The translations under genes and the position numbers were made by a program. A model generated the notes under the pieces. The model made no database searches. It saw only the letters and a program-made list of their open reading frames with translations, and had not been told where the DNA came from. A stretch of 64,000 bases of DNA from Candidatus Babeliales bacterium (GTDB lineage Bacteria; Babelota; Babeliae; Babelales; RVW-14): assembly GCA_019749895.1 (NCBI GenBank), contig JAIEPG010000005.1:73371-137370 (forward strand), written 5' to 3'. Positions 1,536-47,423 of this stretch are shown in pieces (position 1 is the stretch's first letter; the number at the start of each line of letters is the position of its first letter).

Positions 1536-2870
1536 ATGTTTCACAAGTTAATTAGGACATTCTGGGGAGACCTCAAGGGGCAAGAACTAACCAAGTTCCT
1601 CCTTCTCGCACTGGGCTTTTTCTTTTTAATAGGCTCATATTGGCCACTAAAAACACTTAAGGACAGCATTTTTGTTAACATTGTTGGTCCTGAGTACATT
1701 CCCATGGCAAAAATTTTGTCACTCACCATCTTCTTTCCGCTCGTTATGATTTATTCAAAGCTGGTGGACGTTTTTGTTAAAGAAAAGATGGTGTACTTAC
1801 TCGTGGGCGTTTACGGCTTTATTGGCCTTATTTTCGTTTACTTCTTTTTCCATCCAACAATCGGCTTACAAAACGCCGTTCCAAGCGCTTCACGCTTACT
1901 TGGTTGGCTCTTCTTTTTGTACGTTGAAAGTTATGTTTCATTAATGATTTCACTCTTCTGGTCATTTACGCACGACATTACCACACCAGAGTCGGCAAAA
2001 AAAGGTTATGGCCTCATTATTTTTGGCACTCAACTTGGCGGCTTTTTGCTCACACTTTTAGGCAACCGATTGTCGGCAGACCCAGAGCTTTACGCCTCTC
2101 GCGCACCACTAATTGCCTTAATCTCAATCTGTTTATTTTTCTTTATCGCTCTGGTAACGTTTATTTTGCATAAAATTGTTGCCAAAGAAATCTTGGAAGG
2201 ATACGAAGATAAAGTTGCACCTGCAACCCTAGAAGAACCAACATCGGTCGGTTTTCTGGATGGTTTAAAACTCTTGCTCACGCATCCGTACGTTGCCGGC
2301 ATCTTCTTTCTTATTTTCTTCCACGAGTTTGTTTCAACGGTCATGAACTTTCAAATGATTATGCAAGCAAAAACAACCTACGTTTCTGCTGGCTTAGTTA
2401 ACAAATTCCTCTTCGACTACGCACTGGCTGTACAAGGCACTGCGTGCTTGTTTGGCTTGCTGGGTACATCATTTTTTCAACGCCGCTTTGGCATACGCTT
2501 TTGTTTAATTGCTTACCCGCTGCTGTTGGGAATCTCAATTATTTACTACCTTGCCAACCCAACATTGCAAAGCATTTTTTATGTGATGATTATTGCAAAA
2601 GCAATCAATTACGCCTTCAACCAGCCGGCAAAAGAGGTTCTGTACATCCCAACCACCAAGAATATAAAATACAAGTCTAAGGCCTGGATCGACATGTTTG
2701 GCATGCGCTTTTCAAAGGCTGCCGGCTCTACCGCTAACACCATTATTGTTACCATGTCGTACCTAACCGGCCCTATTGTTTTGTCGCTTATTGCTATCTG
2801 GGCCATACTGGCAAGCATGATTGGCAAAACGTTTAATACTGCTATTTCAGAAAAAAAGATCATCGATTAA
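1536..2870 (+). CDS. ntt: ATP/ADP translocase family nucleotide transporter (TLC/NTT), paralog 1
   Basis: 444 aa and polytopic. The N-terminus LIRTFWGDLKGQELTKFLLLALGFFFLIGSYWPLKTLKDSIFV and ...AKEVLYIPTTKNIKYKSKAWIDMFG.R.SKA are typical of Rickettsia/Chlamydia Tlc/Npt carriers. Confidence 0.85.
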   Translation: MFHKLIRTFWGDLKGQELTKFLLLALGFFFLIGSYWPLKTLKDSIFVNIVGPEYIPMAKILSLTIFFPLVMIYSKLVDVFVKEKMVYLLVGVYGFIGLIFVYFFFHPTIGLQNAVPSASRLLGWLFFLYVESYVSLMISLFWSFTHDITTPESAKKGYGLIIFGTQLGGFLLTLLGNRLSADPELYASRAPLIALISICLFFFIALVTFILHKIVAKEILEGYEDKVAPATLEEPTSVGFLDGLKLLLTHPYVAGIFFLIFFHEFVSTVMNFQMIMQAKTTYVSAGLVNKFLFDYALAVQGTACLFGLLGTSFFQRRFGIRFCLIAYPLLLGISIIYYLANPTLQSIFYVMIIAKAINYAFNQPAKEVLYIPTTKNIKYKSKAWIDMFGMRFSKAAGSTANTIIVTMSYLTGPIVLSLIAIWAILASMIGKTFNTAISEKKIID

Positions 2871-3045
2871 TACCAATAAATGGTAGCTGAATCAACTATT
2901 TGCAAGAATAGTCGATATGAAATATACTGATTGCTTGTGAAAAACGAAAGGATATAGTGTCTATGAACAAAAGTGGGTAGGTACTTATTCGCAACAAAAT
3001 ACTGAGAGAACAACATTTTAGTAACCTTTTTTAGGAGCTTTTTTT

Positions 3046-4344
3046 ATGCTGAGTAGAATTAAACACGCCCTCTGGGGAGATTTGACCAAAGACGAAGTTA
3101 AAAAATTTGGTATGCTCTCATTCACGTTCTTGTTCATTATTGGTACCTACTGGCTCATGCGTCCACTCAAAGACGGTCTTTTCATGGACTTGGTTGGACC
3201 TGCATCATTGCCTTACGCCAAAATGCTTTCATTCGCGTTCATTGTTCCTTTAATTCTTTTCTATTCCAAGCTTGTTGACTTGGTAGAAAAACAAAAGCTG
3301 TTCTATGTTTTGTGTACTATTTATGGCATTTTATTTGCCGGCGTTGCATTTTTACTTGCACAACCAGCCTTTGCACTTAACGGCCCAAGCACCCCTGCAA
3401 AGCGTATGCTTGGCTGGTGCGTATATTTGGCTATTGAAAGCTTTGGTTCATTGTTGGTTACCCTTTTCTGGTCGTTCGTTGCAAGCTCAACCGACACGAC
3501 TTCAGCAAAAAGAGGCTACGCGCTCATTATTTCAGGCGCGCAAATTGGTTCCATCACCGGACCTTATTTGGCAACAAACGCAGAACACCTTGGTCTTTCA
3601 TTGTTGACCGGCATTGTTGCTGGCGGCATTTTGCTGGTACCTTTGTTGATCAAAATGTTCATCACCATATACCCAAGCTCAGCTGAAAAGAGTGTTTCAA
3701 CCAAGCCAAAAACCGGCGCGTTTGAAGGTTTTAAACTCTTGCTGACCAAGCCATACCTTCTTGGCATACTTGGCGTTGCAACATTGTACGAAGTAATTGG
3801 TACCGTTATCGACTACCAACTCAAATATTTGGCAAAAGAAACCTATGGCAGCGCAGAAAAAGTTACTCAATTCTTGGGCTACTTTGGTTTGACCACCAAC
3901 GCACTTGCTTTGGTATTCTCGTTGATTGGAACAACATTCTTCATCAACCGTTACGGCCTTACCTTCTGCTTGGTTATGTATCCAGTGAGCGTTGCCATTG
4001 TTTTGGTAAACATCTGGGCATTGCCTGGTCTTTGGGTAGTATTTGCGGGCATGGTTGCTATTAAAGGCTTCAGCTACGCATTGAACAACCCTTGCAAAGA
4101 AATTATGTACATCCCAACCAGCAAAGACGTTAAGTTTAAAGCTAAAGGTTGGATCGACATGTTCGGTTCCCGTTCTTCCAAAGCCACAGGTGCCGGTATT
4201 GGTTCTATGTTCTCAAGCATGACCAGCCTTGCGCTCTACGGACCACTCGTTTGTATGGGTATTGTAGGCATCTGGATCATGGTTGCTTTGTACGTTGGCA
4301 GAACCAACAAGAAACTTGTTGATAGCAAAACAATCATTGAGTAA
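3046..4344 (+). CDS. ntt: ATP/ADP translocase family nucleotide transporter (TLC/NTT), paralog 2
   Basis: 432 aa with the same motif set (WGDLTKDEVKKF..., CKEIMYIPTSKDVKFKAKGWIDMFGSRSSKA). A TAGGAG RBS precedes the ATG. Confidence 0.85.
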   Translation: MLSRIKHALWGDLTKDEVKKFGMLSFTFLFIIGTYWLMRPLKDGLFMDLVGPASLPYAKMLSFAFIVPLILFYSKLVDLVEKQKLFYVLCTIYGILFAGVAFLLAQPAFALNGPSTPAKRMLGWCVYLAIESFGSLLVTLFWSFVASSTDTTSAKRGYALIISGAQIGSITGPYLATNAEHLGLSLLTGIVAGGILLVPLLIKMFITIYPSSAEKSVSTKPKTGAFEGFKLLLTKPYLLGILGVATLYEVIGTVIDYQLKYLAKETYGSAEKVTQFLGYFGLTTNALALVFSLIGTTFFINRYGLTFCLVMYPVSVAIVLVNIWALPGLWVVFAGMVAIKGFSYALNNPCKEIMYIPTSKDVKFKAKGWIDMFGSRSSKATGAGIGSMFSSMTSLALYGPLVCMGIVGIWIMVALYVGRTNKKLVDSKTIIE

Positions 4345-4370
4345 TGATTGTTTTCTAAAAAACTACTAAA

Positions 4371-4401
4371 AGGCCGGAGCTTTTTGCTCTGGCCTTTTTT
4401 C
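4371..4401 (+). terminator. Rho-independent terminator after NTT paralog 2
   Basis: aggccggagc-ttttt-gctctggcct forms a 10-bp stem (one G:U pair) with a 5-nt loop, followed by T6. Confidence 0.8.
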
Positions 4402-4480
4402 TTGATATCTTTAAATAAGCGGGGGTAATAAGCTATCGTAAAAATAGTACGTGAAGATATTTAAAACAAAAGGAGACTTA

Positions 4481-5776
4481 ATGCTAAGTTCTATAAAACA
4501 AGCCCTCTGGGGCAAATTAACACGCGAAGAGTTTAAACGGTTTAGTATTTTATCGCTCACGCTCTTGCTCATTTTGGGCACCTACTGGCTCATGAAACCG
4601 CTTAAAGACGCGCTCTTTGCCAAAATGGTAGGCCCCGATTTTTATCCGTACGTAAAAATTCTTTCCTTCTGGTTTACCATCCCACTCATTTTGCTTTATT
4701 CCAAAGCGGTAGACCTATTTGAAAAGCAAAATTTGTTTTATATTTTTTCAGCTTTTTACGGCTCACTCTTTTTCATTATCGCACTCTTACTTGCCCACCC
4801 AACCATTGGCCTGGCCAACACCACGCCAAACAAGTACCGCATTTTAGGCTGGGCGCTGTATGTAACGATTGAAACTTTTGGCTCGCTCATGGTTGCTCTT
4901 TTTTGGGCTTTCGTTGCAAGTTCTACCAACACCGAGGCGGCAAAGCGTGGCTATGCATTAATTATTGCTGGCGCCCAAATTGGCACCATTGCTGGGCCCT
5001 ACATTGCCTTGAGTGCCCCAACCTTAGGTATCCCACTCCTTATGTTTTGCATTTGCGCTGGCGTAACTTTTATACCTGTTCTCATTAAAATTTTCACACA
5101 CTTCAACCCCCGCGCTGCCGAGCACCACGCACCGTCAGAAAAAACTGGGCCCATTGAAGGGCTTAAGTTACTGCTGACCAGGCCCTACCTGCTGGGCGTG
5201 ATGGGCGTTTCGGTTTTATACGACATTGTTGCCACCATTCTTGAATTTCAAATGGTATCGCTTGCCAACACTCAGTTTCATTCAACCGAACACTTGGCAC
5301 GTTTTCTCAGCTACTTTGGTTTAATGACCAACGGCTCAGCATTATTGATCTCACTGATCGGTACCAGCTTTTTAGTGCGCCGCTTTGGCCTGACTTTTTG
5401 TTTGGTTGTCTATCCGGTTATTACCGCGGTTGCTCTGCTGCACATTTTGTGGATACCTGTTTTATGGGTCGTGGTTGGCGCGCTCGTGGTAATAAAAAGT
5501 TTGAATTACGCACTCAATAATCCATGCAAAGAAATGCTCTACATTCCCACCAGCCGCGATATTAAGTTTAAAGCGAAGAGCTGGATTGATATGTTTGGTT
5601 GCCGCTCAGCCAAAGCTGGTGGCGGTTTTTTAAGCACCTTTTTTACACAAATGCATGAGCTGCTTTTTTATGGCCCACTGCTTTCGCTTGGTGTAGTCGG
5701 CGTTTGGATTATTATTGCGCTGTACACGGGCACAACACACCGTGCACTTGAAAAGAGTAATCGAACGATTGAATAA
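4481..5776 (+). CDS. ntt: ATP/ADP translocase family nucleotide transporter (TLC/NTT), paralog 3
   Basis: The ORF opens at GTG 4451. The ATG at 4481 is preceded by AAAGGAGA and aligns with the N-termini of paralogs 1 and 2 (MLSSIKQALWGKLTREEFKRF). Also present: CKEMLYIPTSRDIKFKAKSWIDMFGCRSAKA. Confidence 0.85.
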   Translation: MLSSIKQALWGKLTREEFKRFSILSLTLLLILGTYWLMKPLKDALFAKMVGPDFYPYVKILSFWFTIPLILLYSKAVDLFEKQNLFYIFSAFYGSLFFIIALLLAHPTIGLANTTPNKYRILGWALYVTIETFGSLMVALFWAFVASSTNTEAAKRGYALIIAGAQIGTIAGPYIALSAPTLGIPLLMFCICAGVTFIPVLIKIFTHFNPRAAEHHAPSEKTGPIEGLKLLLTRPYLLGVMGVSVLYDIVATILEFQMVSLANTQFHSTEHLARFLSYFGLMTNGSALLISLIGTSFLVRRFGLTFCLVVYPVITAVALLHILWIPVLWVVVGALVVIKSLNYALNNPCKEMLYIPTSRDIKFKAKSWIDMFGCRSAKAGGGFLSTFFTQMHELLFYGPLLSLGVVGVWIIIALYTGTTHRALEKSNRTIE

Positions 5777-5854
5777 ATCGAATAAAACTTTTCATTCTTA
5801 TTACCCATTTTTTTTGCTATCCTCTCGCACATTAATCACCTTTTTTTCAGGATA

Positions 5855-8419
5855 ATGTTGGTCACGATGGATTACAAAAAACAGTTTAATCATTTCATAA
5901 ACAAAGAGCTCAACAAACCACAGCAAGAGGCAGCAACGCAAAAGTCTGGCGCACTGCTGGTTATTGCTGGCGCAGGCTCAGGAAAAACGCGCGTAATTAC
6001 CGCACGCATTGCCAATTTAATTATTAACGAAAACGTAAGCCCAAAGGCCATTACTGCGCTCACCTTCACCAACAAAGCTGCCGAAGAAATGAAAGAGCGC
6101 TTGCACAAGTTTCTTGATGGCAACCACGAGCTACCGTTTGTTGGCACATTCCATTCATACTGCCTTCTGCTTTTGAGAACCAACCTGCATTATCTTTCAG
6201 CGCCCTACTTTTCAATTCTTGATGGTGACGACCAACTCAGCATCGTGAAACAAATTATAAAAAAAGGTGCTCTTGAAAAGCAGATCACGCCCTCGCAAAT
6301 TATGTACCAGCTATCGCAGTACAAAAATAAGTATTTCATGAATCCGCAAGAGGCTGAAAACACCGTAAGCCCGCTCATAAAAGAAATTTATCATGCGTAT
6401 GAGGCAGAAAAAACAGCCGCTCGCAGCTTTGACTTTGACGACTTGATTCTGGAAGTCTTAAAACTATTTAGAAAGAATAAAACGTTCAAACGCGAGTTCC
6501 AAGCAAAAATTAAGCATGTGCTCGTTGACGAATATCAAGATACCAGCCACACGCAGCACGAGCTGCTACGACAAATGGGCCTTGATGAGGATAAAAAATT
6601 TATTCTGGATTCACTGTGTGCCGTTGGCGATGAAGACCAGTCAATTTATTCATGGCGCGGGGCAACCGTTACCAACATGCTTAAAATTAAGCAGGAGTTT
6701 GCGCCGGTAACCACCGTTAAAATTGAACAAAACTATCGCTCCGTCACCCCGATTTTAGAAACTGCTAACCACGTGATTCAGCATAACACACAGCGAAACC
6801 CTAAAAAGTTGTGGTCGGACAAGCAGGGCAAAAATAGAATTTTATTGCTGACCTGCCGCTCGGGCGAGCAAGAAGCCGATGCCGTAGCGATCTTGTTAAA
6901 AAATTTGCCAGAAAATAAAAAGCTGAGCAACGTAGCCATTTTGTACCGCACACACTATCAATCGCGCTCGTTGGAAGAATCGCTCATTTATCACGCAATC
7001 CCCTACCGCATTATTGGCGGTATCCGCTTTTATGAACGCAAAGAAATTAAAGATGTTTTGGCGTACCTACGCTTGATGGTAAACCCCTTTGACCGCATCA
7101 GCCTGCTGCGCATTGTTAACTATCCGCTGCGCGGCCTTGGGCAAAAGTTTGAAGAACAGCTGATGGAAGCCTGGCAACAAAACCCACTGCTCGACTTTAA
7201 GCAACTAATTACGTATTTGATTTCAAGCGAAGGCGTTAGTTCGGCAAAGCAGCTGGCGCTCAAGCAATTTTTGGCAATCTATGCAACAGCACCACAAAAC
7301 GGCTCTCCGTCAGACTTAGTTGACCATGTGCTGACAAAAATTGATTACCTTAATTATTTGCGCACCACGCTGGACGCACAAGAAGCTGACACAAAAATTG
7401 AAAACGTACGCGAGTTGGTACAATCAATTGCCACGTTTGAAAAGAATTTTGACGGATCGCGCGAGTCGGTTAACCCTAACGACCCTTTTGCCAGTAGCTC
7501 AAACGCACCAACACTTGAAAACTTTTTGTACGAAGTTACGTTGATGCAAGAAAAGAGTGATAACGAAAACCGCGATGACCAGGTCTGTTTAATGACACTG
7601 CACGGATCTAAAGGCCTTGAGTTTGATATGGTTATTATTACCGGCCTTGAAGAAGAAATGCTGCCAAGCGGCAAAGCGCTCAACACCAACGAAGAACTTG
7701 AAGAAGAGCGACGCCTGTTTTATGTGGGCATTACGCGGGCAGAAGAACGCCTGGTACTTACGCACGCTGATTACCGCAACCGCTTTGGCACGATAGTGCA
7801 CCAAATTCCGTCACGCTTTTTGTCTGAACTTAAGCGGCCACTGGTTCAAGAGTTTAATGCGAGCAATGCCCACGCAACACAACTTAAAACACAGTTTAGA
7901 CGCTGGCTTGGTCTTTCTACTCAGTTTGACCAAAACATTCTTACGTTTACCAACTTTATACCACCAGACCGGTTGAGTGGAGAAAATACGGTTGAATCAT
8001 CTCCCCCTTCGAGACGCCTGTCTTCGCTAAAAGCTACGTCAGGCTCCTCAGGGCGAACGGGAAAAAGGATATTCTCCGAAAAACCAGAATACCTGATCCA
8101 TCAATCGACACAAAATAATAACAAGTACACAAGATCACAGGATCCAAATCGCTCGCTAAAGAACAAACAAGTTTCTTCCTCCGTTCGCCCTGAGGAGCAT
8201 GGCGTAGCTCGCAAGAGCTTAGACAGGCGTCTCGAAGGGTCTACAAACAAAACAGCCCCAACGAGCGAATGGTACAAAAACCAATTAGTTGAGCACAGCA
8301 AGTTTGGCAAAGGGATTGTAACGCACGTTGAAAAGGCCGATGGCGATGCGTACCACATTACCGCCATCTTTCAATCTGGGCCTAAAAAGATTCTTTCGAG
8401 TTTTTTGAAGAAGAGTTGA
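5855..8419 (+). CDS. uvrD: UvrD/PcrA/Rep-type superfamily 1 DNA helicase, with a repeat-derived insert in the C-terminal linker
   Basis: Motifs seen: AGAGSGKTRVIT (Walker A), VLVDEYQDTS, YRS, TLHGSKGLEFD, YVGITRAEERL. The C-terminal Tudor-like segment is VEHSKFGKGIVTHVEK. An alternative start is at 5867. Confidence 0.9.
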   Translation: MLVTMDYKKQFNHFINKELNKPQQEAATQKSGALLVIAGAGSGKTRVITARIANLIINENVSPKAITALTFTNKAAEEMKERLHKFLDGNHELPFVGTFHSYCLLLLRTNLHYLSAPYFSILDGDDQLSIVKQIIKKGALEKQITPSQIMYQLSQYKNKYFMNPQEAENTVSPLIKEIYHAYEAEKTAARSFDFDDLILEVLKLFRKNKTFKREFQAKIKHVLVDEYQDTSHTQHELLRQMGLDEDKKFILDSLCAVGDEDQSIYSWRGATVTNMLKIKQEFAPVTTVKIEQNYRSVTPILETANHVIQHNTQRNPKKLWSDKQGKNRILLLTCRSGEQEADAVAILLKNLPENKKLSNVAILYRTHYQSRSLEESLIYHAIPYRIIGGIRFYERKEIKDVLAYLRLMVNPFDRISLLRIVNYPLRGLGQKFEEQLMEAWQQNPLLDFKQLITYLISSEGVSSAKQLALKQFLAIYATAPQNGSPSDLVDHVLTKIDYLNYLRTTLDAQEADTKIENVRELVQSIATFEKNFDGSRESVNPNDPFASSSNAPTLENFLYEVTLMQEKSDNENRDDQVCLMTLHGSKGLEFDMVIITGLEEEMLPSGKALNTNEELEEERRLFYVGITRAEERLVLTHADYRNRFGTIVHQIPSRFLSELKRPLVQEFNASNAHATQLKTQFRRWLGLSTQFDQNILTFTNFIPPDRLSGENTVESSPPSRRLSSLKATSGSSGRTGKRIFSEKPEYLIHQSTQNNNKYTRSQDPNRSLKNKQVSSSVRPEEHGVARKSLDRRLEGSTNKTAPTSEWYKNQLVEHSKFGKGIVTHVEKADGDAYHITAIFQSGPKKILSSFLKKS
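8005..8239. repeat. GC-rich palindromic repeat element, copy A, inside the uvrD reading frame
   Basis: The left arm cccttcgagacgcctgtcttcgct..ctcctcagggcgaacgg (8005-8060) has its inverted copy ccgttcgccctgaggagc..agacaggcgtctcgaaggg at 8181-8239. The same motifs recur at 28107, 60302 and 63882. Confidence 0.8.
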
Positions 8420-8555
8420 GGAGAGCACGAAATTCCAAGTCCGCTTGCGCTTCAATCTCAGCAATCTCTTTTTTAGTAAGCCTCTTTTCAAGGTGTTCTT
8501 GAAAGCTCTTTGTTTTCATAGACATCTTCACTTTAGGCATGTTTCGATTTTTCAT
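8382..8555 (-). CDS. Small hypothetical ORF (57 aa from MKNRN...), possibly a remnant; overlaps the uvrD 3' end
   Basis: The ORF is 8382..8645. The internal ATG at 8555 follows an AGAGAAA purine run. KSFQEHLEKRLTKKEIAEIEAQADLEFRAL resembles the N-terminal leader of some XRE-type antitoxins, but no HTH domain follows. Confidence 0.25.
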   Translation of the reverse strand: MKNRNMPKVKMSMKTKSFQEHLEKRLTKKEIAEIEAQADLEFRALLNSSSKNSKESF

Positions 8556-8688
8556 TTTCTCTTTCAATTTAATTGTTTCTACCCCCAATTTTAGCACATA
8601 GCAAACTAAGAAAGAAGGGCTTGCAATTAATGGTAAAAACCCCAAAACAGAAGGCCATTAAATTTCCACTTGAAACGAATTAAAGCCT

Positions 8689-9807: not shown

Positions 9808-10986
9808 CTAAAGCGTTGCAAGCTGCTGGACCAACGTTACCAACTTTGCTTTCAGTACTTGCAGCGCAGCAGACAAATCATTTAACGATGCAGCAGAAGA
9901 TACTGGTAGAGTTGGTGCCGTTTGAACGCTTGGTCGTATTCTTTTTTTTACTTTTTCAAGCGCTTTTTTAAGCATATCTTTATCTTTATCATCTGCCTTC
10001 TCTAACGGCGTATTGCCCGCACTGTCCTTCACACCAGGATCAGCCCCTGCCGCAAGTAATAATTCAACTATCTCTTGATGCGAATTCAGCCATTCCTTAT
10101 GTCCTGCTCGATTCCTTGGAAACATTGAATGCGTCGCCCACAGATGCAATGGCGTTGATCCAGCATCTTCACTCTTAATATTCACATTGGCACCAGCCTG
10201 AATAAGCTCTTTTGCGCGATTTTGATCCTTGGCTTTCAGCGCAATCAGCAACTCTTTGCCCAGTAATTCCTTAATAAATGTGTATCTGATAGGTGCCTTG
10301 GATAGCGTCAACTTCCCATCGTTCACTGCAGGACTATATTCTTTGTGTAAAAGATCGGGAATCACACCTCCTCCAGCATCAACTAACTGCTTGGCTATAT
10401 CTTCTTCCAAGGCTAATTCCAAGGCAAAGGCGAGCGGCGTACAGTCTTTATACGTAGTAAATGCATAGGAAAACGTATATTTTTTAAACAAACTTTCTTT
10501 TGGTACTGTTTTAAGAAAATCTTGAAACGCCTGCAAATCACTCTCCACTTTTCTATCTAGATCATCCCTGAGCTTAACAAGTTTTTCGCACAATTCTCTA
10601 CCCTTTAACCAGACATCATTATTTGCATCTTGCAATGCATGCAAAACATCTCCACTTCCATCAGAAATGGCAAGTCGAGGATCTGCCCCTGCGGCCAACA
10701 ACAACCTTACAATATCAAGTCTATTCTTCTTCACTGCCACACCAAGAGGCGTATCTTTTTTGAGAAAAAAAGCTTTGGTCCACGAGTGCCATGAATATTC
10801 ATTATTCAAATCGGCAACTTGCTCAATAAGCGTTTTAACAACCTCCATGTCCGGAGAAAGAACACTATCGATCTCAGAACACAACGCACTCCCCAATTGA
10901 TCTTGATTTGACGCTGCACCAAAAACAATGCCCTGCGCGCCCAGCACCAGCAGCCCCACCACCAACCATAATTTTGCAATCTTCAT
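9808..10986 (-). CDS. Ankyrin-repeat protein with signal peptide
   Basis: MKIAKLWLVVGLLVLGAQGIVFGAAS resembles a signal peptide. Ankyrin motifs: TPLGVAVKKNRLDIVRLLLAAGADP, STPLHLWA, NTPLEKA... Confidence 0.85.
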   Translation of the reverse strand: MKIAKLWLVVGLLVLGAQGIVFGAASNQDQLGSALCSEIDSVLSPDMEVVKTLIEQVADLNNEYSWHSWTKAFFLKKDTPLGVAVKKNRLDIVRLLLAAGADPRLAISDGSGDVLHALQDANNDVWLKGRELCEKLVKLRDDLDRKVESDLQAFQDFLKTVPKESLFKKYTFSYAFTTYKDCTPLAFALELALEEDIAKQLVDAGGGVIPDLLHKEYSPAVNDGKLTLSKAPIRYTFIKELLGKELLIALKAKDQNRAKELIQAGANVNIKSEDAGSTPLHLWATHSMFPRNRAGHKEWLNSHQEIVELLLAAGADPGVKDSAGNTPLEKADDKDKDMLKKALEKVKKRIRPSVQTAPTLPVSSAASLNDLSAALQVLKAKLVTLVQQLATL

Positions 10987-11061: not shown

Positions 11062-11080
11062 GAAGAAGAAGAAGAAGAAG
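11062..11080. repeat. (GAA/AAG)6 trinucleotide microsatellite in a divergent intergenic region
   Basis: Six perfect AAG units were read at 11063-11080, about 76 nt upstream of the minus-strand start at 10986. Confidence 0.9.
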
Positions 11081-11149
11081 TGTTTCCCAAGCGTTTTTAC
11101 AGCACAAGCAACCACGCTTTTAGCCTCCCTGGCTACTTTTTTAAATTAT

Positions 11150-11178
11150 TTACAAGCTGAACAGGCACTGGCTATACT
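11150..11178 (+). promoter_or_regulatory. Candidate sigma70-type promoter TTACAA-N17-TATACT for the ankyrin-RING gene
   Basis: The hexamers and spacer were read directly. It lies 44 nt upstream of the ATG at 11222. Confidence 0.4.
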
Positions 11179-11221: not shown

Positions 11222-12760
11222 ATGAAAAAAAGCGCTTTTTTTGCAATTTTATTCACTTTTTTGCTAACCCATAACCTGCATGGCGCCCCAGCAGACCAGC
11301 CAACGCTGACCGTTCCTGCAAGCATGTGGTACGCCGCCATGGGCTCAACCAACTCATTGGCTCAGCTGCCACCAGCAGCATTGGTAGAACCGGACGAAAA
11401 CGGCCAAACACCCCTGCACATTGCAGCTCAGAACGGGCACCCAAATACTATTTTGTTTTTGCTGCAACAAGGCGCACCGGTTAACGTAGCAGACAAACAA
11501 GGTCTAACCGCCTTGCACCTGGCTGCTCAATTTGGCCAAAAGCCATGCGTACAAACGCTGCTCAACCAAAAGGCTGCTATCAACAGTGCTGGTACCACGG
11601 GCATAACACCGCTGCATTTGGCCGCCTTTTACGGCCAACTTGATGTAGTAAAACAGCTTCTTGAATACAAAGAATGTAACATTGAAGCGGTTACCAAAGG
11701 CAAATCTACCCCACTCCATTTTGCGGCTCAAAGCGGACAGACCGTCTGCGTAGAAGCATTGTTGGCAAAAAATGCCAAAGTTGACGTACGAAATACGCTG
11801 GACGAAACACCACTTTTACAAGCAATAAAAAATAATCAGCTAGCTAGCGCACAGCTCTTGCTTAACAAAAATGCTACTGTCAGTATTAGAAACAAACTTG
11901 GCTCAACGCCCCTGCATTATGCCGCTTTAAATAACTTTAACGAAGGAATCACCGCGCTCTTAAAAAAAGGCGCAACGGTAAACGTTAAAGACAAAAACGG
12001 CATGAGCCCACTGCACTACACTGCCGGCAACAATAATCTGGATGGCACCAAACAACTTTTGGAAAAAGGGGCCAGCATTAACACGGCAAACAACAATAAA
12101 AGCACGCCGCTGCACATTGCTGCCACTAACAATGCACTCGACTGCATCCCGCTCTTGCTGGCAAAAGGCGCCGACGTTAACGCGACAGACGCCAACAAAT
12201 CAACACCACTGCACTTGGCAGCCACCAACGGCCACGAGCTGGGCGTACGCTTGCTGCTGAGCAGCAAAGGAACCAAGGCTATTGGCATTGACGCTGTTGA
12301 TGCTGCTGGCGCAACACCGCTGCACCGCGCCGCCCAAAACGGCCACGTGACTGTTTGTTTTATGTTGATCATGAGCGGTGCAAACTTATTAACCCCAACC
12401 ACCAATGCGGCTACTGCAAATGCTAACAAAACAGCACAAACGCTGGCTGCGCAAAACGGGCACTATGCCCTGGCTAATGCCCTGCAGTACACACAAACCA
12501 ATGGCCAGCTGCCAAGCATTGCGGCTGCAGAAAGCGCGTGCACGCTCTGTGCGCAACAGTTCAACATTGCCGAAGTTGGCATGCAACTGCCGTGCGGGCA
12601 CATGATGCACCCAAACTGCCTGCAAACGTTTATTGCCCAACCTACTCAACTTGCCTACCAATGCCCAACCTGCCAAGCAGCTGCACAGGCGCAAGCGCAA
12701 GCAATTGCAGTTTTAATGGTTGCGGCAAGTCCAACCAATGAAGCGGTAGGTAAAAAGTAA
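11222..12760 (+). CDS. Secreted ankyrin-repeat protein with a C-terminal RING-H2 zinc finger (candidate E3 ubiquitin-ligase-like effector)
   Basis: Signal peptide MKKSAFFAILFTFLLTHNLHGAP, then about 10 ankyrin repeats (TPLH.AA..G....V..LL..GA.VN). At aa 440-484 the pattern is C-x2-C-x14-C-x-H-x2-H-x2-C-x14-C-x2-C (CTLC...CGHMMHPNC...CPTC). Confidence 0.85.
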   Translation: MKKSAFFAILFTFLLTHNLHGAPADQPTLTVPASMWYAAMGSTNSLAQLPPAALVEPDENGQTPLHIAAQNGHPNTILFLLQQGAPVNVADKQGLTALHLAAQFGQKPCVQTLLNQKAAINSAGTTGITPLHLAAFYGQLDVVKQLLEYKECNIEAVTKGKSTPLHFAAQSGQTVCVEALLAKNAKVDVRNTLDETPLLQAIKNNQLASAQLLLNKNATVSIRNKLGSTPLHYAALNNFNEGITALLKKGATVNVKDKNGMSPLHYTAGNNNLDGTKQLLEKGASINTANNNKSTPLHIAATNNALDCIPLLLAKGADVNATDANKSTPLHLAATNGHELGVRLLLSSKGTKAIGIDAVDAAGATPLHRAAQNGHVTVCFMLIMSGANLLTPTTNAATANANKTAQTLAAQNGHYALANALQYTQTNGQLPSIAAAESACTLCAQQFNIAEVGMQLPCGHMMHPNCLQTFIAQPTQLAYQCPTCQAAAQAQAQAIAVLMVAASPTNEAVGKK

Positions 12761-12772
12761 GGAACACAAAGC

Positions 12773-13963
12773 TCACTCGCCGTAAATCTCGTTCAACAAA
12801 GCTTCGACTGAGTTCCAACAGAACCCGCGCCCTTCTTTGCGTTGAAGGTTTTCGTTACCGCCATAAACAACGTAAAGCGGCAATGTTTCTTGCTCGGTAA
12901 TCTCTCGCCAGGCAAAAAGCTCTTTAAAAAAGTTATCTGAAAAAGTCATACCTGCTTTAATTTCAACCGGCACAACGTGGTTGTACGATTTTTCAATAAC
13001 CACATCAATTTCATGGCCCTGCACATCGCGCCAGAAATAGATCTGCGGCGTCTTGTTGTGATTGTAATTGTGTTTAAACATTTCACTAATCACAAACGAT
13101 TCAAACAACGCGCCCTTGAGCGGATGCGTATGCAGCTCTTCTGCTGTTCTGATCCCTAGCAACGAACAAACCAATGACGTATCGTTAAAGTAGATTTTGG
13201 GGCTTTTAATTACGCGCTTGTTAAAATTTTTGTAGTACGGTGGAAGCAACTTGATAATGTAACTTGCTTCTAAAATTGCAATCCACGACTTGGCAGTATT
13301 CAAACTGATGCCAGCATCGCGTGCAATGTCGGCATAGTTAAGCAAGTTGCCAACACGCGCAGCACACAACTTTAAAAAGCCTTGAAACGCAATAACATCA
13401 GAGATATTCAGCACTTGCCGCACATCTTTTTCAACGTACGTACTGATATAATTTGAGCACCATGTTTGCACCGGAATTGGCTGAGAATAAAGCCGCGGAT
13501 AACAACCTTTAATGAACAACGAAGCAAAATCTTCAGGCAGCATATTGGCATCATGCAATTCTTGGACCGACAATGGCAACAGCGTAAGCAGGGCTATCCG
13601 ACCTGCCAGCGTTTGAGTTATTTTTTCGTACATAAGAAAATGCTGTGAGCCGGTAATAATAAAATAACCCGGCCGATACGCTTGGTCCACAATCCCTTGC
13701 ATGTACGAAAGCAACTCTGGCACTTCTTGAATTTCATCAATAATTAAACCGATGTGCTGAGCATACGTAGCAAAAAAGCCCCGCGGGTCTTGCTGTGCTG
13801 CACTCCGCTTGTCTAAGTCTTCCAACGTAACATAGGCATAGCCAGCAAAAGTCTCTTTTACCAAGGTGGTCTTGCCAGACTGCCGAGGGCCCATAACTGC
13901 CACCACGGGAAACTGCGTAGCTAATTCTTGCAAATGAGCGGTAATAGTACGCTTAATAATCAT
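12773..13963 (-). CDS. AAA-type ATPase of the AAA_14/DUF4143 kind
   Basis: Walker A VMGPRQSGKTTLV and Walker B LIIDEIQ are present. The C-terminal region resembles the usual DUF4143 architecture. The start was chosen at MIIKRT (the ORF opens at 14005). Confidence 0.7.
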   Translation of the reverse strand: MIIKRTITAHLQELATQFPVVAVMGPRQSGKTTLVKETFAGYAYVTLEDLDKRSAAQQDPRGFFATYAQHIGLIIDEIQEVPELLSYMQGIVDQAYRPGYFIITGSQHFLMYEKITQTLAGRIALLTLLPLSVQELHDANMLPEDFASLFIKGCYPRLYSQPIPVQTWCSNYISTYVEKDVRQVLNISDVIAFQGFLKLCAARVGNLLNYADIARDAGISLNTAKSWIAILEASYIIKLLPPYYKNFNKRVIKSPKIYFNDTSLVCSLLGIRTAEELHTHPLKGALFESFVISEMFKHNYNHNKTPQIYFWRDVQGHEIDVVIEKSYNHVVPVEIKAGMTFSDNFFKELFAWREITEQETLPLYVVYGGNENLQRKEGRGFCWNSVEALLNEIYGE

Positions 13964-14121
13964 CTTTTTTGCCCCTTTTTTAGACTTTTTACAAAACTCG
14001 TACAATCTGCAATCCTATTGCATATTTTACACGATTTGCCAAAAACATCAAACAGATCGTTATTTTCGAGCAGGACAAGTTTTTAAAACCAGGCCTTTCG
14101 AGCCCTCAACCACGCCCCTTT

Positions 14122-14150: not shown

Positions 14151-14209
14151 GGTTGCACGGAAAAACATGATAGATTAAGCAAAATTCTTACCGCTGGGTT
14201 GTGGGCACT

Positions 14210-15259
14210 ATGAAATTTAACACCGCGTTTCGTTCTCTTTCTCTGACACTTGTGTGCGCACTGAGCACCTCTTTTTATGCACACGCTGCCACTCCAGCAA
14301 CTGATTCGGCCCCAGTGGTTTCTGATGACGAAAAAATGGTCCCGGTTGGACCAGTACTCAAAGGCCTTGTTGCCCTTGCCTTCTTGCAACTGTACTATTT
14401 TACCGCCCCAAAGCACACGCAAGAGCGGCTCAAAGAACAGTTCTCGCCAAAAAACCTCGCATTCAACTTTGCCGGAGAATATTCTTCGTATTTCTTAATG
14501 ACGCTCATTCATGAGCTTGGTCACGCGGCCGTTGCCAACTATATCAACAACGACCCAATCAATATTCACATGGGCGGTAATGATAACAGCAAGTTGGACG
14601 ATCCTCTTTTTGCAACCGATCATTTCACGCTCGATGGCTTAAGCCCGCTTGAAGGACTCACTATCTATCGCCTTTCAACTCAAATGACCGATAAACTTTT
14701 GTTTGTTGAATATTTACAAGATTGCTTAAAAAACAACGAGACGCTTGAAACTATTTCTGCTGAAAAATTTGGCACCTTCAAAGAGGCTTTTGTTAACTCG
14801 CCAGCATACCAAGAGCTCTTACAAAAACTTGAAAATAACAAATCAAAAGAAAATCTTATTTTGGCAGCTGGTGGCATTGCTGCCCTTTCAGTCAACACAC
14901 TCTTTAAATTTATGCGCTCAATGGCAAAAAGTTATCAGGAAAATGCTGAAGCTCTTGATGCTCTTAAGGCATCGTTTGGCGCAGCTTTTTCTATCGACAA
15001 AATAGTACTCAATCAAGTGTTGAGTGCCTTCTTGCCATGCAGCAAAAACAGCGATGGCGCCAAATTGTGGCGCAACATTGCAGGCGTGCCCGAAGGCGTG
15101 CTTGAATTTTGCTACACGGCAGCACCATACGTAGACATGCTTGGCGAGTGCTACCTTGCCTACAAAGACCCACGAGCTGAATCAGCCAAACTCCCCGATA
15201 AACTTATGATTGGTTTGATTAACTATTTATTGCGCGGTTATTTGCGTTTTCACGCTTAA
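14210..15259 (+). CDS. Hypothetical secreted protein with an HExxH metalloprotease-like motif
   Basis: Signal-like N-terminus MKFNTAFRSLSLTLVCALSTSFYAHA and the motif LIHELGHAAV. I recognise no other family signature. Confidence 0.5.
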   Translation: MKFNTAFRSLSLTLVCALSTSFYAHAATPATDSAPVVSDDEKMVPVGPVLKGLVALAFLQLYYFTAPKHTQERLKEQFSPKNLAFNFAGEYSSYFLMTLIHELGHAAVANYINNDPINIHMGGNDNSKLDDPLFATDHFTLDGLSPLEGLTIYRLSTQMTDKLLFVEYLQDCLKNNETLETISAEKFGTFKEAFVNSPAYQELLQKLENNKSKENLILAAGGIAALSVNTLFKFMRSMAKSYQENAEALDALKASFGAAFSIDKIVLNQVLSAFLPCSKNSDGAKLWRNIAGVPEGVLEFCYTAAPYVDMLGECYLAYKDPRAESAKLPDKLMIGLINYLLRGYLRFHA

Positions 15260-38952: not shown

Positions 38953-40989
38953 CTAACTTGTTGAATCGTAAAAAAGCTGGCCAGCCAAGTTAACGGTAGC
39001 ACCGCTCAAAACGTAGGCATCCAAATCGAAACTTGAACCAAGAGATGAATTACCAAGCGTAAGACCATTGGTCAGTGCTTGACTAGCTGATTCTGTGGTA
39101 TAAGCAACATCAAAAACTAATATTTCATTTGGTGAAGATGCTACTCCTGCCAAAAGTTTTTTACCGTCAGCAGAAAAACGAAGATCTGTTACGTTCACAA
39201 GACCAACATTGTACGTGTAAACCGACGTCAGTGATGTACCATTAAATTCAAAAATTCTGATATTGTTGACACCTCCACCTTGAGCCCCTCCAACAGCAAC
39301 ATAACGACCATCTGGAGACCAATCTACCGCGTAGTAAAGGGTGGTATTAAACGAATTAGATGCACTAGCAATCAAATTTTGTGTAAAACCGTTAAAAGAA
39401 TACACCATTAATGCAGGATCTGAACCAGCCGAGCTATTATAGGTTGTTATAGCAAAAAATAACCCATCAGAACGCCAAGCAACCTGACTAGATATTGCAA
39501 ATGCAGCAGAAAAAGTTACGGAATGACTACTTTGCTGCGTAAGAGATGTCCCATCAAACAAGTAAGTCTTGCTTGTTGTTGTTGGCGAAAAGCTACCGTA
39601 ATAAAGAGCTAAATATCTACCATTTGGACTCCACATAAGGGCTCTTCCTGCACTAAAGTTCCCTGCTCCTGGGGCCACTGTTGCAATTGCTGTAAGACTA
39701 TAACCACTAAACGAATAAACCGTCAAAGAACCAGTATTCATACCAGCAAGATAGTTACCACAAGGACTCCACGCTACTATGAATTGTCCACCAACCGAAG
39801 CAATTGGAGTCAAGCTTGCACCATCAAACCTGAAAACAGTTATGCCCGTGGCCCCAATAACACCAACAGCAATAAACCGACCAGTTGGATCCCAGTCAAC
39901 TGAGTAAACACCGGTACCACCCAGAACATAAGAAGCAACTAATTCTAATCCAGTAGCAGTAACTTTCAAAACACGAAAATTTGCATTAAGATAAGAAATA
40001 GTTGCAACATAACGAGCATTTGGGCTAAAAACACATTCAGCAAAACTTGATCCACTCGTAAGCAAAGAACTTGTCTCTGTTAAACTCAAAAATTTCGTTG
40101 TAGGTTTTGTCTCGATATCAATTTTATTGTCTAACCACAAGCGACCCTTGGTCAACCGCATGCCGGTAAATGTTGTTTGCAATGTGGTTCCGGAACCTTT
40201 GAGATAGATCCCCGAAGATTTGTCGTTCAGTTGCAATAAATCTTTATCGGTGGTGCTTGGATAGTAGTACAACGTAGTGCCAGGGTCGAAAGTCAACAGT
40301 GATTTTGGCGCAACATAACTTTGCATAACTGATTGATAAATAAATTGTGAAGTTCCGGTAAAGCGCACGTCATTAAAACAGAACATGCGCCCCGTTCTAA
40401 AAGCAAAATCATCTGCCAACGCCAGCTCAACATTATCAAGTGTCACATGCCCCTTTTGGTCAAAACAACGAATGATGGGAATATTGGAGCTGTTGCGCGT
40501 TGTTTGAATAGTCATATTTTTGAGCGTCAACGAAACATCTGAAGCAAGCAACAATTGTGCGTGCGCACCCAGCGTTAACGTATGGCCATGACCATCAATA
40601 ATTGTGTTGTCAATAAATTCTACAATCGTATCAGTTGGCAGACTCAATGAACCCCCAAGATGTATTGTGTTGCCACGCCCGTAAATTTTACCACTGCTTG
40701 ACCAGGTCAATTTTGAATCAAGATACAAATCTCCACGCAGATCTAACGAGCCTGTGGTACGCAAATCTATTGAACCAGAAACGGTATAAAACGTGTCTAG
40801 CGCTGCCGACTGGCCGGCTAAAATAGTAAAACCGTTATTTAACCGCACATAACCTTTTGCCGTGTTAAAGTTACGAAATACATAATGCTTGTCTTGATAC
40901 ACAATGCTTGCAGTACCATTCAAACTTGTTGCTTGCGCGAGCTCTGGACACAACGCAAGTAACACTAATAATTTTACAACTTGCTTCAT
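38953..40989 (-). CDS. Secreted modular protein, array paralog 1 of 5 (signal peptide, conserved N-module, 7-bladed propeller, conserved C-module)
   Basis: MKQVVKLLVLLALCPELAQA|TSLNGT. The N-module is shared with the other four copies. There are seven WSPxGxY-type blades. The C-terminus is ...ALTNGLTLGNSSLGSSFDLDAYVLSGATVNLAGQLFYDSTS. Confidence 0.85.
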   Translation of the reverse strand: MKQVVKLLVLLALCPELAQATSLNGTASIVYQDKHYVFRNFNTAKGYVRLNNGFTILAGQSAALDTFYTVSGSIDLRTTGSLDLRGDLYLDSKLTWSSSGKIYGRGNTIHLGGSLSLPTDTIVEFIDNTIIDGHGHTLTLGAHAQLLLASDVSLTLKNMTIQTTRNSSNIPIIRCFDQKGHVTLDNVELALADDFAFRTGRMFCFNDVRFTGTSQFIYQSVMQSYVAPKSLLTFDPGTTLYYYPSTTDKDLLQLNDKSSGIYLKGSGTTLQTTFTGMRLTKGRLWLDNKIDIETKPTTKFLSLTETSSLLTSGSSFAECVFSPNARYVATISYLNANFRVLKVTATGLELVASYVLGGTGVYSVDWDPTGRFIAVGVIGATGITVFRFDGASLTPIASVGGQFIVAWSPCGNYLAGMNTGSLTVYSFSGYSLTAIATVAPGAGNFSAGRALMWSPNGRYLALYYGSFSPTTTSKTYLFDGTSLTQQSSHSVTFSAAFAISSQVAWRSDGLFFAITTYNSSAGSDPALMVYSFNGFTQNLIASASNSFNTTLYYAVDWSPDGRYVAVGGAQGGGVNNIRIFEFNGTSLTSVYTYNVGLVNVTDLRFSADGKKLLAGVASSPNEILVFDVAYTTESASQALTNGLTLGNSSLGSSFDLDAYVLSGATVNLAGQLFYDSTS

Positions 40990-41041
40990 TACTACTCCCT
41001 TCTTTTACTTCTCACTCTTTTTTATAAATTTTTTTTATTTC

Positions 41042-43132
41042 CTAGCTTGTTGAATCGTAAAACAACTGGCCCGCCAAGTTAACGGTGGCACCGCTCAAAA
41101 CGTAGGCATCCAAATCGAATGAAGAGCCGGAAGCTGAGTTACCCAACGTAAGCCCGTTAGTAAGAGCTTGTGTTGTCGTGTCAAAGCGATAAGACACTGA
41201 ATAAACTTCAATTTGTGCATGGCCACCGGCAGGACCTTGACCACAAAGCGCTAGATATTTGCCATCTTTTGACCAACTTGTGTCTGCATGTCCATTGGAA
41301 TTACTACCATAATTGGAACTCGTTACCAGCGTTAAAGAAGAACCATTAAACTGAAAAATTTGAAACTCATTACTATTAGTCGGTGCTCTACCGCTCAGAG
41401 AGATGTATCTGCCGGTTGAATCCCACTGCACACTGTTAGGTCCAATTTGTAATCCATAATCTTTACTATCAACAAGCGTGCACGTTGTTCCATTAAAACT
41501 ATAAACTTGCAGTTCATTGCCATTAGTTGGAGAATTGCCCCCGACTGCCAAAAAATTACCATCCGGACTAAATTTCACTGCTAGAACAGAACTTGACCCA
41601 TACGTAACACTGGTAACTAATGTTAATGATGATCCATTGAATGAATAAACTTTAAATGTGCCATCACCTACACCAACAGCAACAAGGGCACTATTAATTG
41701 GATGCCATGAGAAACTAAACGGTGGACTCGATGGTCCAGCTATATTAAGACCGGTAACAAACGTAAGACTTGCAGCGAGAGGAGTCCCACTAAAACGATA
41801 CACTTGCAATCCATCACCAGTCGGCACCGGTGTTGGATTATAGGTACCAACAATAATATATTGCTGATCAAAAGACCATGCTAACCCAAACGCATTACCA
41901 ATATCAACCACCGAGCTTAATGAAACAGCAGCAAGTAACGTCAAACTTGTCCCATTAAAACTATAAACCTTAACGTTATTAGGATAACCACCAACTACCG
42001 CAAGATACTGACCGTCGATGCTCCATCGCGTGCAAAAAGCTTTGTTTTCAGTACCTCCAAAATTAGCGGTTGCTACCGAAGTAAGAGCTGCCCCGTCAAA
42101 GCGATAAACCTGTACCGAAGTAGCTCCGCCCCCTTCTCCAACTACCGCCACAAAGCGACCATTCGGAGAAAAATCGATTGAATAGGCACCAGTTGCCCCG
42201 TAACTTGCTGTGTCCACTTGGGTAATACTCGTTAATGTTGTTGCCGCGCGGGTACTCACCGTAACTTTATTGTCAAACCACAACCGACCTTTGCTCAAAC
42301 GCATACCGGTATGCGTTGTTTGGAGCGTTGTTGCAGCACCTTTAAAATAAACTCCTGCTGACTTGTCTTGCAGCTGTAATAAACTTTTTGCTGTTGTGCT
42401 TGGATAATAATACAATGTAGTACCAGGATCGAAGGTCAAAAGTGACTGTGAAGCAACATAGCTTTGCATCACCGATTGATATATAAAACACGAAGTGCCA
42501 GTCACAATAACATCGTTATTAAAGAACATGCGACCATTACGAAATGGAAAGTCATCTGCCAATGCCAACTCAACATCGTCCAACGTCACATGACCTTTTT
42601 GATCAAAACAGCGAATGATAGGAATGTTTGAACTATTGCGCGTTGTTTGAATGGTCATATTTTTGAGCGTCAACGAAACGTCTGAAGCAAGCAACAACTG
42701 CGCATGCGCCCCAAGCGTTAACGTGTGCCCATCACCATCAACAATGGTATCATCAATAAATTGTAAAACCGTGTCCGTTGGCAAACTCAATGAACCCCCA
42801 AGATGTATTGTATTGCCACGTCCATAAATTTTGCCGCTGCTTGACCACGTCACATGTGCATCTAAAAATAGATCGCTGCGCAAATCAAGCGAACCGGTGG
42901 TGCGCAAATCAATAGCACCAGAAACTGTTACAAAGGTATCTAAACCTGCCGACTGGCCAGCCAAAATGGTAAAGCCGTTGTTTAAACGTACATAGCCAGT
43001 TGCCGTATTAAAATTACGAAAAACATAATGCTTGTCTTGATACACAATGCTTGCGGTACCATTCAAACTTGTTGCACGCGCCAGCACTGGGCAGAACGCA
43101 AGCACCAATAATAATTTTAGAACGCGCTTCAT
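41042..43132 (-). CDS. Secreted modular protein, array paralog 2 of 5
   Basis: Same N- and C-modules. The propeller sequence is unrelated in detail to the other copies but again has seven blades (FSPNGRF, WSIDGQY, WSFDQQY, WHPINSA, FSPDGNF, WDSTGRY, WSKDGKY). Confidence 0.85.
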   Translation of the reverse strand: MKRVLKLLLVLAFCPVLARATSLNGTASIVYQDKHYVFRNFNTATGYVRLNNGFTILAGQSAGLDTFVTVSGAIDLRTTGSLDLRSDLFLDAHVTWSSSGKIYGRGNTIHLGGSLSLPTDTVLQFIDDTIVDGDGHTLTLGAHAQLLLASDVSLTLKNMTIQTTRNSSNIPIIRCFDQKGHVTLDDVELALADDFPFRNGRMFFNNDVIVTGTSCFIYQSVMQSYVASQSLLTFDPGTTLYYYPSTTAKSLLQLQDKSAGVYFKGAATTLQTTHTGMRLSKGRLWFDNKVTVSTRAATTLTSITQVDTASYGATGAYSIDFSPNGRFVAVVGEGGGATSVQVYRFDGAALTSVATANFGGTENKAFCTRWSIDGQYLAVVGGYPNNVKVYSFNGTSLTLLAAVSLSSVVDIGNAFGLAWSFDQQYIIVGTYNPTPVPTGDGLQVYRFSGTPLAASLTFVTGLNIAGPSSPPFSFSWHPINSALVAVGVGDGTFKVYSFNGSSLTLVTSVTYGSSSVLAVKFSPDGNFLAVGGNSPTNGNELQVYSFNGTTCTLVDSKDYGLQIGPNSVQWDSTGRYISLSGRAPTNSNEFQIFQFNGSSLTLVTSSNYGSNSNGHADTSWSKDGKYLALCGQGPAGGHAQIEVYSVSYRFDTTTQALTNGLTLGNSASGSSFDLDAYVLSGATVNLAGQLFYDSTS

Positions 43133-43187
43133 TACTACTCCCTTTTTCTGCTTTCTACTTCTCTTTTTTTATTCTCTAAATTTTTTT

Positions 43188-45248: not shown

Positions 45249-45304
45249 TACTACTCCCTTTTTCTACCTTCTACTTTCTCTTTTTTTATTCTCTAAATTT
45301 TTTT

Positions 45305-47368: not shown

Positions 47369-47423
47369 TACTACTCCTTTTTTCTACTTTCTACTTTCTC
47401 TTTTTTTATTTTCTAAATTTTTT

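Follow-up and report, generated by a model that had tools for sequence, protein, structure and literature searches.

An ankyrin-repeat protein with a predicted signal peptide and a C-terminal RING-H2 finger in a Babeliales (Dependentiae) genome, a candidate host-directed ubiquitin-ligase mimic

The Dependentiae (TM6) are widespread and almost uncultured bacteria whose many ankyrin proteins lack an assigned biochemical function; the members in culture live as obligate parasites inside amoebae and flagellates. In Babela massiliensis, signal peptides occur in 79 of the 126 ankyrin-repeat (ANK) proteins, for which secretion into the host is predicted (PMC4378268), and the same prediction has been made for Chromulinavorax, with 98 ANK proteins, 78% of them bearing signal peptides (PMC6561590). 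Here we describe a gene of this phylum, called ANK-RING below, whose product combines a predicted N-terminal signal peptide and an ankyrin solenoid with a C-terminal RING-H2 finger. The gene lies in a 64-kb stretch of contig JAIEPG010000005.1 from a Candidatus Babeliales bacterium (assembly GCA_019749895.1), and this whole stretch is referred to as the window. Our preferred reading, to which we give a probability of roughly 0.6, is that the protein is a Sec-exported, host-directed E3 ubiquitin-ligase mimic of the ANK-RING-H2 type, made by an obligate intracellular member of the Dependentiae.

RING proteins of intracellular bacteria have been reported before, and several come close to this one. 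Within the same phylum and order as the window, a RING-finger protein of Babela massiliensis was given as a potential E3 by Pagnier et al.; it is known by description, and the paper is silent on ankyrin repeats in it (PMC4378268). The Cardinium protein CAHE_p0026 resembles the window protein in its hydrophobic N-terminus, its ankyrin repeats, a RING-H2 finger that passes the Pfam model zf-RING_2 (34.2 bits) and a second loop of unusual length ahead of the last Cys pair, and it, too, belongs to an intracellular bacterium (PMC5698495). The two RING fingers are 25% identical over 52 residues (E = 9e-6), so that the same architecture is seen without orthology, and the likeness points to a shared domain type, not to the same protein family. 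The Cardinium protein differs by having more ankyrin repeats after the RING, by being plasmid-borne, and by coming from a member of the Bacteroidota with an insect host; at the so-called linchpin position it has Arg (CPNCR), in contrast to the Gln of the window protein. SneRING (SNE_A12920) of Simkania negevensis is likewise a RING-type E3, from a bacterium that is obligately intracellular and amoeba-capable, and its autoubiquitination, dependent on a ubiquitin-conjugating enzyme (E2), has been shown experimentally despite atypical ligands (PMC12591485). In SneRING the RING is N-terminal, has His as the third ligand of the first zinc site (Zn1), an NxxC pair and Ser at an E2-contact position, and precedes a domain of unknown function, with no ankyrin repeats in the protein, whereas the window protein carries a fully canonical C3H2C3 set at its C-terminus. 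An earlier note on this DNA, made from the sequence alone, had overrated the novelty of the finding, given that the Babela RING-finger protein, the Cardinium ANK-RING gene and the active Simkania E3 were already published. The TM6 comparative-genomics paper makes no mention of RING or ubiquitin (PMC4776705), and a full-text literature search for Dependentiae, ankyrin and RING together returned nothing relevant. The ANK-RING fusion thus seems not to have been described for the Dependentiae.

Outside the bacteria, the two domains also occur together. Mind bomb 1/2 and the plant XB3/XBAT family use ankyrin repeats as a substrate-binding module and carry one or more RING fingers; the RINGs of Mind bomb are of the C3HC4 type and the protein has additional domains. 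Compared at the domain level, a 'ubiquitin ligase/ankyrin repeat protein' of Feldmannia virus also joins ANK and RING as the window protein does. To our knowledge, none of these eukaryotic and viral proteins has a Sec signal peptide. The same logic, in which a repeat-based substrate binder is coupled to a module for host ubiquitination, is found in Legionella AnkB (ANK and F-box) and LubX/GobX (U-box) and in the poxvirus ANK/PRANC proteins (PMC7830128, PMC4378268). Their modules differ from the RING finger of the window protein, in that an F-box needs the SCF complex and a U-box does without zinc, being held by salt bridges and hydrogen bonds. Delivery in Legionella depends on the Dot/Icm type IV system, in place of the Sec signal peptide predicted for the window protein.

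A regular expression for the RING pattern, run over the translations of all six frames of the window, matched only once, at residues 440-484 of the ANK-RING protein (Table 1). The match reads CTLCAQQFNIAEVGMQLPCGHMMHPNCLQTFIAQPTQLAYQCPTC, that is C-x2-C-x14-C-x-H-x2-H-x2-C-x14-C-x2-C with a spacing of 2/14/1/2/2/14/2. Its eight predicted ligands, in the order C-C-C-H-H-C-C-C, fit the RING-H2 spacing C-x2-C-x9-39-C-x1-3-H-x2-3-H-x2-C-x4-48-C-x2-C, as they do in the ortholog introduced below. Six of the 11 Cys residues of the protein fall within these 45 residues, and the motif did not arise by chance in any of 300 shuffles of all six-frame open reading frames (ORFs) or of 200,000 shuffles of the protein.

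Profile searches assign the domain to the same type. The model zf-RING_2 (PF13639), whose gathering cut-off is 27.3 bits, matches residues 439-485; it scores 30.2 bits when the full protein is scanned and 33.9 bits for the isolated C-terminus. The remaining RING-type models in Pfam all score below it. In the same scan Prok-RING_4 reached 12.8-16.3 bits against its cut-off of 27, and the other families from Prok-RING_1 to Prok-RING_4 were not listed. Because zf-RING_2 lies above its cut-off and Prok-RING_4 below its own, we class the domain, by its sequence, as a eukaryote-type RING-H2 finger and not as a prokaryote-specific RING. No U-box family was among the Pfam matches: zf-RING_UBOX scored 13.5-20.5 bits against a cut-off of 25.2, and the full Cys/His set is present. 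When the C-terminal 88 residues were compared by phmmer with the sequences in the PDB, gp78/AMFR came first (2.9e-6), followed by Pirh2/RCHY1, RNF126, RNF165/Arkadia and synoviolin/HRD1, and the top matches were all RING-H2 E3 domains. These ligases, taken as RNF165/Ark2C, gp78/AMFR, Pirh2/RCHY1, RNF126 and HRD1 together with small plant RING-H2 ligases, share with the window RING the ligand pattern, the spacing class, the fold and the types of residue at the E2 contact. At 25-43% identity, the window RING differs from them in a Gln for the linchpin Arg, a Phe for a Trp, a longer loop 2 (14 residues) and its placement behind a bacterial signal peptide.

The fold was modelled with AlphaFold2 for residues 425-512, using a 45-sequence alignment. 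In this domain model the RING blocks have a predicted local distance difference test (pLDDT) score of 76-87, and a hairpin is followed by a helix at 464-472. The top Foldseek matches in the PDB are RING E3 crystal structures, led by the RNF165 RING in complex with UbcH5b~Ub (Ub, ubiquitin), on which the model superposes with a root-mean-square deviation of 1.8-2.4 Å over 47-48 columns (template-modelling score 0.64-0.72, probability 1.0). By homology, a first zinc ion would be held by C440, C443, H463 and C466 and a second one (Zn2) by C458, H460, C481 and C484, that is by ligands 1, 2, 5, 6 and 3, 4, 7, 8, respectively. The earlier note had placed a RING-H2 finger with this spacing and C3H2C3 ligand order at these coordinates, had read it as eukaryote-type and had called for a profile search and a structure prediction. 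ORF translation and the regular expression bear out its placement; zf-RING_2 passes, at 30.2 bits against 27.3, and the RING fold is obtained, with RNF165 RING structures as the top Foldseek matches and RING-H2 E3s as the best solved relatives, in agreement with a eukaryote-type finger.

At the canonical E2-contact positions, located with an alignment of 44 RING-H2 relatives to the ANK-RING protein and with the gp78 alignment, the protein has L442 between the first two Cys ligands, F470 in the central helix and P482 after the seventh ligand, so that the hydrophobic E2-contact residues typical of a RING-H2 finger are present. Other observations weigh against an active, host-directed ligase. Directly after the last Cys, at a position that is Arg in over 90% of the RING-H2 relatives in the alignment, stands Q485, which means that the linchpin is neither Arg nor Lys, and the ortholog has Gln here as well. 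Moreover, F470 replaces a Trp found in more than 90% of the relatives and M462 a nearly invariant Phe, although both are conservative changes. The zf-RING_2 score exceeds its cut-off by just 3 bits, and the Foldseek E-values, at about 5e-3, are modest owing to the very small size of the domain. Finally, the Sec pathway and the type II secretion system (T2SS) release proteins outside the bacterium, where any host-derived membrane would still have to be crossed. The linchpin Arg or Lys primes the ubiquitin-loaded E2 (E2~Ub) and is typical of highly active RINGs, but it is not strictly defining; Q485 could mean low intrinsic activity or another way of priming E2~Ub, perhaps via the conserved C-terminal helix.

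The same features would also suit a RING-H2 finger that folds without being catalytic and that sequesters or redirects host E2s or RING partners, or heterodimerises with a host RING, while the ankyrin array serves as a scaffold. The Gln at the linchpin, the two exchanges at nearly invariant positions and the narrow Pfam score fit such a protein, and its conserved C-terminal helix could mediate dimerisation. We nevertheless regard this explanation as unlikely. Strong purifying selection has preserved the eight ligands along with L442, F470 and P482, Phe is a mild substitute for Trp, and various active RING ligases do without an Arg linchpin. The atypical SneRING, too, is active (PMC12591485).

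That the gene is real follows from its conservation. Exact copies occur on four independent Logan assemblies, and when GTDB was scanned with one genome for each species, a single related locus emerged, on contig JAIERW010000001.1 (L005) of a metagenome-assembled genome (MAG) labelled 'Candidatus Babeliales bacterium'. The ortholog there is syntenic, has 513 residues, is 87% identical and retains all eight ligands as well as L442, F470, P482 and Q485. Between the window gene and this ortholog, the ratio of nonsynonymous to synonymous substitution rates (dN/dS, Nei-Gojobori) is 0.11 over the whole gene (dS 0.58), 0.06 in the RING (dS 0.67) and 0.04 in the C-terminal tail. ANK-RING is thus a gene under purifying selection. 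Eukaryotes and giant viruses are the typical carriers of RING domains, and the GC content of the gene (0.50) is the highest in the window (0.425), which could raise the suspicion of a chance Cys/His pattern, a pseudogene remnant or mis-assembled eukaryotic or giant-virus DNA. For practical purposes, an artefact of this kind is already refuted: the shuffled sequences never yielded the motif, the ORF is intact and constrained, the same gene is found in the same bacterial neighbourhood in the four assemblies and in a second MAG, and its GC content at third codon positions (GC3, 0.50) is close to that of housekeeping genes (0.44-0.49). In addition, searches with HMMER and in metagenomes and IMG-VR found no metagenomic, giant-virus or eukaryotic sequence above about 45% RING identity.

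The origin of the RING was approached through its relatives. HMMER returned 253 matches at E <= 1e-3 from 1.84 billion proteins, all of them at the level of the RING domain and none a close homolog. The best was a multi-RING plant protein, in which eight domains inflate the score, and the nearest named single-domain relatives are small plant RING-type E3s, with about 40-43% identity over about 55 residues. Scans of metagenomes and of giant-virus/IMG-VR sequences gave generic RING-H2 fingers only, at 42% identity or less, and Foldseek against viral models returned many giant-virus RING proteins, including the Feldmannia virus protein mentioned above. Word-index searches found no match for the C-terminal 122 residues and were swamped by ankyrin proteins, and so uninformative on the RING, when the full-length protein was used; with a profile (A1) of the window RING and metagenomic RINGs they retrieved 44 short, unnamed RING-only proteins, which were used as the alignment for structure prediction. 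In the protein, metagenome and viral searches no candidate stands out as donor lineage, be it a host or a giant virus, and a domain of 45 residues is too short for a reliable phylogeny. The compositional test for recent transfer gave no clear signal, and since GC3 is near that of the housekeeping genes, any transfer would not be recent.

Among the top 150 HMMER matches, a single protein, P0153, also has ankyrin repeats. P0153 is one of three metagenomic proteins, with P0125 (L006 3891-5312) and P0135, that have signal-peptide-like N-termini and two or three RING-H2 modules. In P0153 the order is RING-ANK-RING, and its gene adjoins one of the Legionella_OMP family. P0125 and P0135 have three RING-type modules each, and each module is followed by a repeated 'LAKIYDS..VPGY' element, except for the last module of P0135. 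The contig of P0125 looks bacterial (NupC and CYTH neighbours, GC 0.43). A 'CGHxxHPxC' signature ('RVGxLxCGHxFHPxC') is common to the window RING and all three of these proteins.

The remainder of the ANK-RING protein comprises a predicted Sec signal peptide and an ankyrin solenoid modelled with confidence. By inspection, its N-terminus resembles a Sec signal peptide, with MKK as n-region, SAFFAILFTFLL as h-region and THNLHG, followed by AP, as c-region; the -3/-1 rule is satisfied with L at -3 and G at -1, and cleavage would fall between G and A. In the alignment of the two orthologs this segment is the least conserved part, far more divergent than the mature protein with its hydrophobicity kept, as would be expected of a signal peptide. 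In the full-length AlphaFold2 model (pLDDT 89.9, predicted template-modelling score 0.80) the protein consists of an ankyrin solenoid, a flexible linker and the RING. The earlier note's count of about 10 ankyrin repeats holds for Pfam, which finds 10 Ank stretches, whereas the model gives about 12 helix-pair units in an uninterrupted solenoid at residues 33-427. Nearly all 10-residue blocks of the solenoid have a mean pLDDT of 91-98, with one block at 84; in the linker, the block at 431-440 averages 58, and residues 434-437 lie below 50. The solenoid is presumed to be the substrate-recognition module. A C-terminal helix is placed at 58-77 in the domain model and at 482-502 in the full-length model, and it may be a dimerisation or activity-modulating tail. 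The C-terminal hydrophobic stretch AIAVLMVAA was considered as a tail anchor and was ruled out as too short, with flanks that are too polar.

The N-terminal segment might, however, stay uncleaved. The full-length model shows a helix at residues 3-17 with low pLDDT, the segment could be a signal anchor, and no dedicated system for translocation into the host cytosol is known for the Dependentiae, for which Sec export only has been described (PMC6561590). The protein would then remain in the periplasm or at the surface of its own cell, in an envelope role, with the Cys/His cluster as a structural zinc or disulfide module that has nothing to do with host ubiquitin. Such a role is, in our judgement, very unlikely: sequence and fold match eukaryotic RING-H2 E3s and not the prokaryote-specific RING families, a combination of ANK and RING has no known periplasmic role, and the signal-peptide ANK proteins of the phylum are generally read as secreted host modulators (PMC4378268, PMC6561590).

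The genomic context argues for a host-directed protein. The gene is encoded in a Dependentiae (Babeliales) genome, as seen from the syntenic MAG ortholog and from three tandem paralogous TLC ATP/ADP translocases in the window (1536-5776, +; 444, 432 and 441 residues). Tandem TLC translocases are a hallmark of energy parasitism and are consistent with an origin from the Dependentiae. The window also encodes a V/A-type ATPase subunit and a PcrA/UvrD helicase, and directly upstream of ANK-RING lie two further ankyrin genes, both with hydrophobic, signal-peptide-like N-termini. Five WD40 paralogs with signal peptides, described below, belong to the same picture; altogether, the neighbourhood is typical of an obligate intracellular energy parasite. 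Components of the T2SS are core genes in TM6 (PMC4776705). The logic of a secreted ANK-RING effector, proposed in the earlier note, fits this setting and gains support from it, because signal-peptide ankyrin proteins are the typical predicted host effectors of the Dependentiae (PMC4378268, PMC6561590) and because the translocases and the Babeliales relative place the gene in such a bacterium.

As a Sec-exported ligase mimic, the protein would act in the following way. The signal peptide would take the unfolded protein through the Sec translocon, and the protein would leave the bacterium via the T2SS conserved in the phylum or in vesicles. In the host cytosol, the C-terminal RING-H2 finger would fold around two zinc ions in a cross-brace and would dock host E2~ubiquitin via L442, F470 and P482. 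The solenoid of about 12 repeats would hold a host substrate, and ubiquitin would pass directly from the E2 to this substrate or to the protein itself. The elements of the gene and of its product are collected in Table 1.

Table 1. Elements of the ANK-RING gene and its product (window coordinates; aa, residues of the protein).
Feature	Position	Strand	Remarks
ANK-RING-H2 gene	11222..12760	+	512 codons plus stop; 512 aa
Promoter-like TTTACA-18-TATACT	11149..11178	+	44 nt upstream of the ATG; consensus scan, a pattern match only and thus weak evidence
Shine-Dalgarno-like element GAAAGG	about -13 to -8 of the ATG	+	read from the sequence; weak evidence
Predicted Sec signal peptide, aa 1-21	11222..11284	+	MKKSAFFAILFTFLLTHNLHG, then AP; inspection of n-, h- and c-regions, -3/-1 rule
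Ankyrin-repeat solenoid, aa 33-427	11318..12502	+	Pfam Ank E = 2.7e-73; full-length AlphaFold2 model
Flexible linker, aa 428-439	12503..12538	+	low pLDDT
RING-H2 finger, aa 440-484	12539..12673	+	motif, Pfam, solved relatives, model, ortholog
Q485, linchpin position directly after the last Cys	12674..12676	+	alignment with RING-H2 relatives
Conserved Ala/Gln-rich C-terminal helix, aa 482-502, ending ...CQAAAQAQAQAIAVLMVAAS	12665..12727	+	both AlphaFold2 models; tail dN/dS 0.04

Several features of the surroundings deserve mention in their own right. A (GAA)6 microsatellite lies at 11062-11079, in the divergent intergenic region upstream of ANK-RING. Downstream, an AAA_14/DUF4143 ATPase gene (12773-14005, -) converges on ANK-RING with 12 bp between the two ends, an arrangement that the Logan contigs and L005 share. 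Beyond it, at 14201-15259 (+), lies a gene for a 352-residue protein with a signal-peptide-like N-terminus and a metalloprotease-type HELGH (HExxH) motif, which has only a faint match to Peptidase_M50 and is conserved and syntenic in L005. Neighbouring signal-peptide proteins, several of them with ankyrin repeats, share a helix-like tail of about 25 residues (L..L..AL.ALKAKL.TL...L) that lies 10-12 residues from the C-terminus; its carriers are encoded at 9808-10986 (-) in the window and at 4313-7075, 7283-7864 and 8007-8579 (all -) in L005. This tail, which the ANK-RING protein does not have, could serve its carriers as a common signal for sorting, anchoring or oligomerisation.

Further away, five tandem paralogs at 38953-49505 (-) encode proteins of 678-696 residues, all with a C-terminal WD40 beta-propeller. 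Neighbours among them are 55-82% identical, the N-termini read have near-identical signal peptides (MK..KLL..L..CP...ATSLNGTASIVYQDKHYVFRN), and the group looks like an expanded secreted family. Two adjacent ORFs of 554 residues at 60517-63842 (-), which overlap by 4 bp and are 37% identical to each other, have no family in Pfam or NCBIfam. When the window was scanned for Rfam families and tRNAs, nothing was found, and hence no taxonomic marker was gained.

For specialists, the ANK-RING protein is not a surprise, nor is it mechanistically new, and the gain is incremental because Cardinium was already known to have an ANK-RING gene and the order itself a RING-finger protein. In a broader generalisation, Dependentiae and other uncultured intracellular bacteria would deliver canonical eukaryote-type RING-H2 ligases through general Sec/type II export, with no type III, IV or VI injection, and ANK-RING, with its Gln linchpin and conserved C-terminal helix, would be a candidate member, together with P0125, P0135 and P0153, of an unrecognised class of signal-peptide RING effectors. 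This reading is hinted at because the metagenomic signal-peptide multi-RING proteins share the CGHxxHPxC signature, but we hold it to be rather doubtful. Should the protein prove active, the few known bacterial RING E3s would gain a member with a fully canonical C3H2C3 RING, and the Dependentiae would have a concrete, testable factor of host manipulation. A RING placed on an ankyrin array would, if this reading is true, provide a readable output, namely the ubiquitination of whatever the repeats bind. As the first ankyrin effector of the Dependentiae to which a biochemical function could be assigned, ANK-RING is a good, clean candidate.

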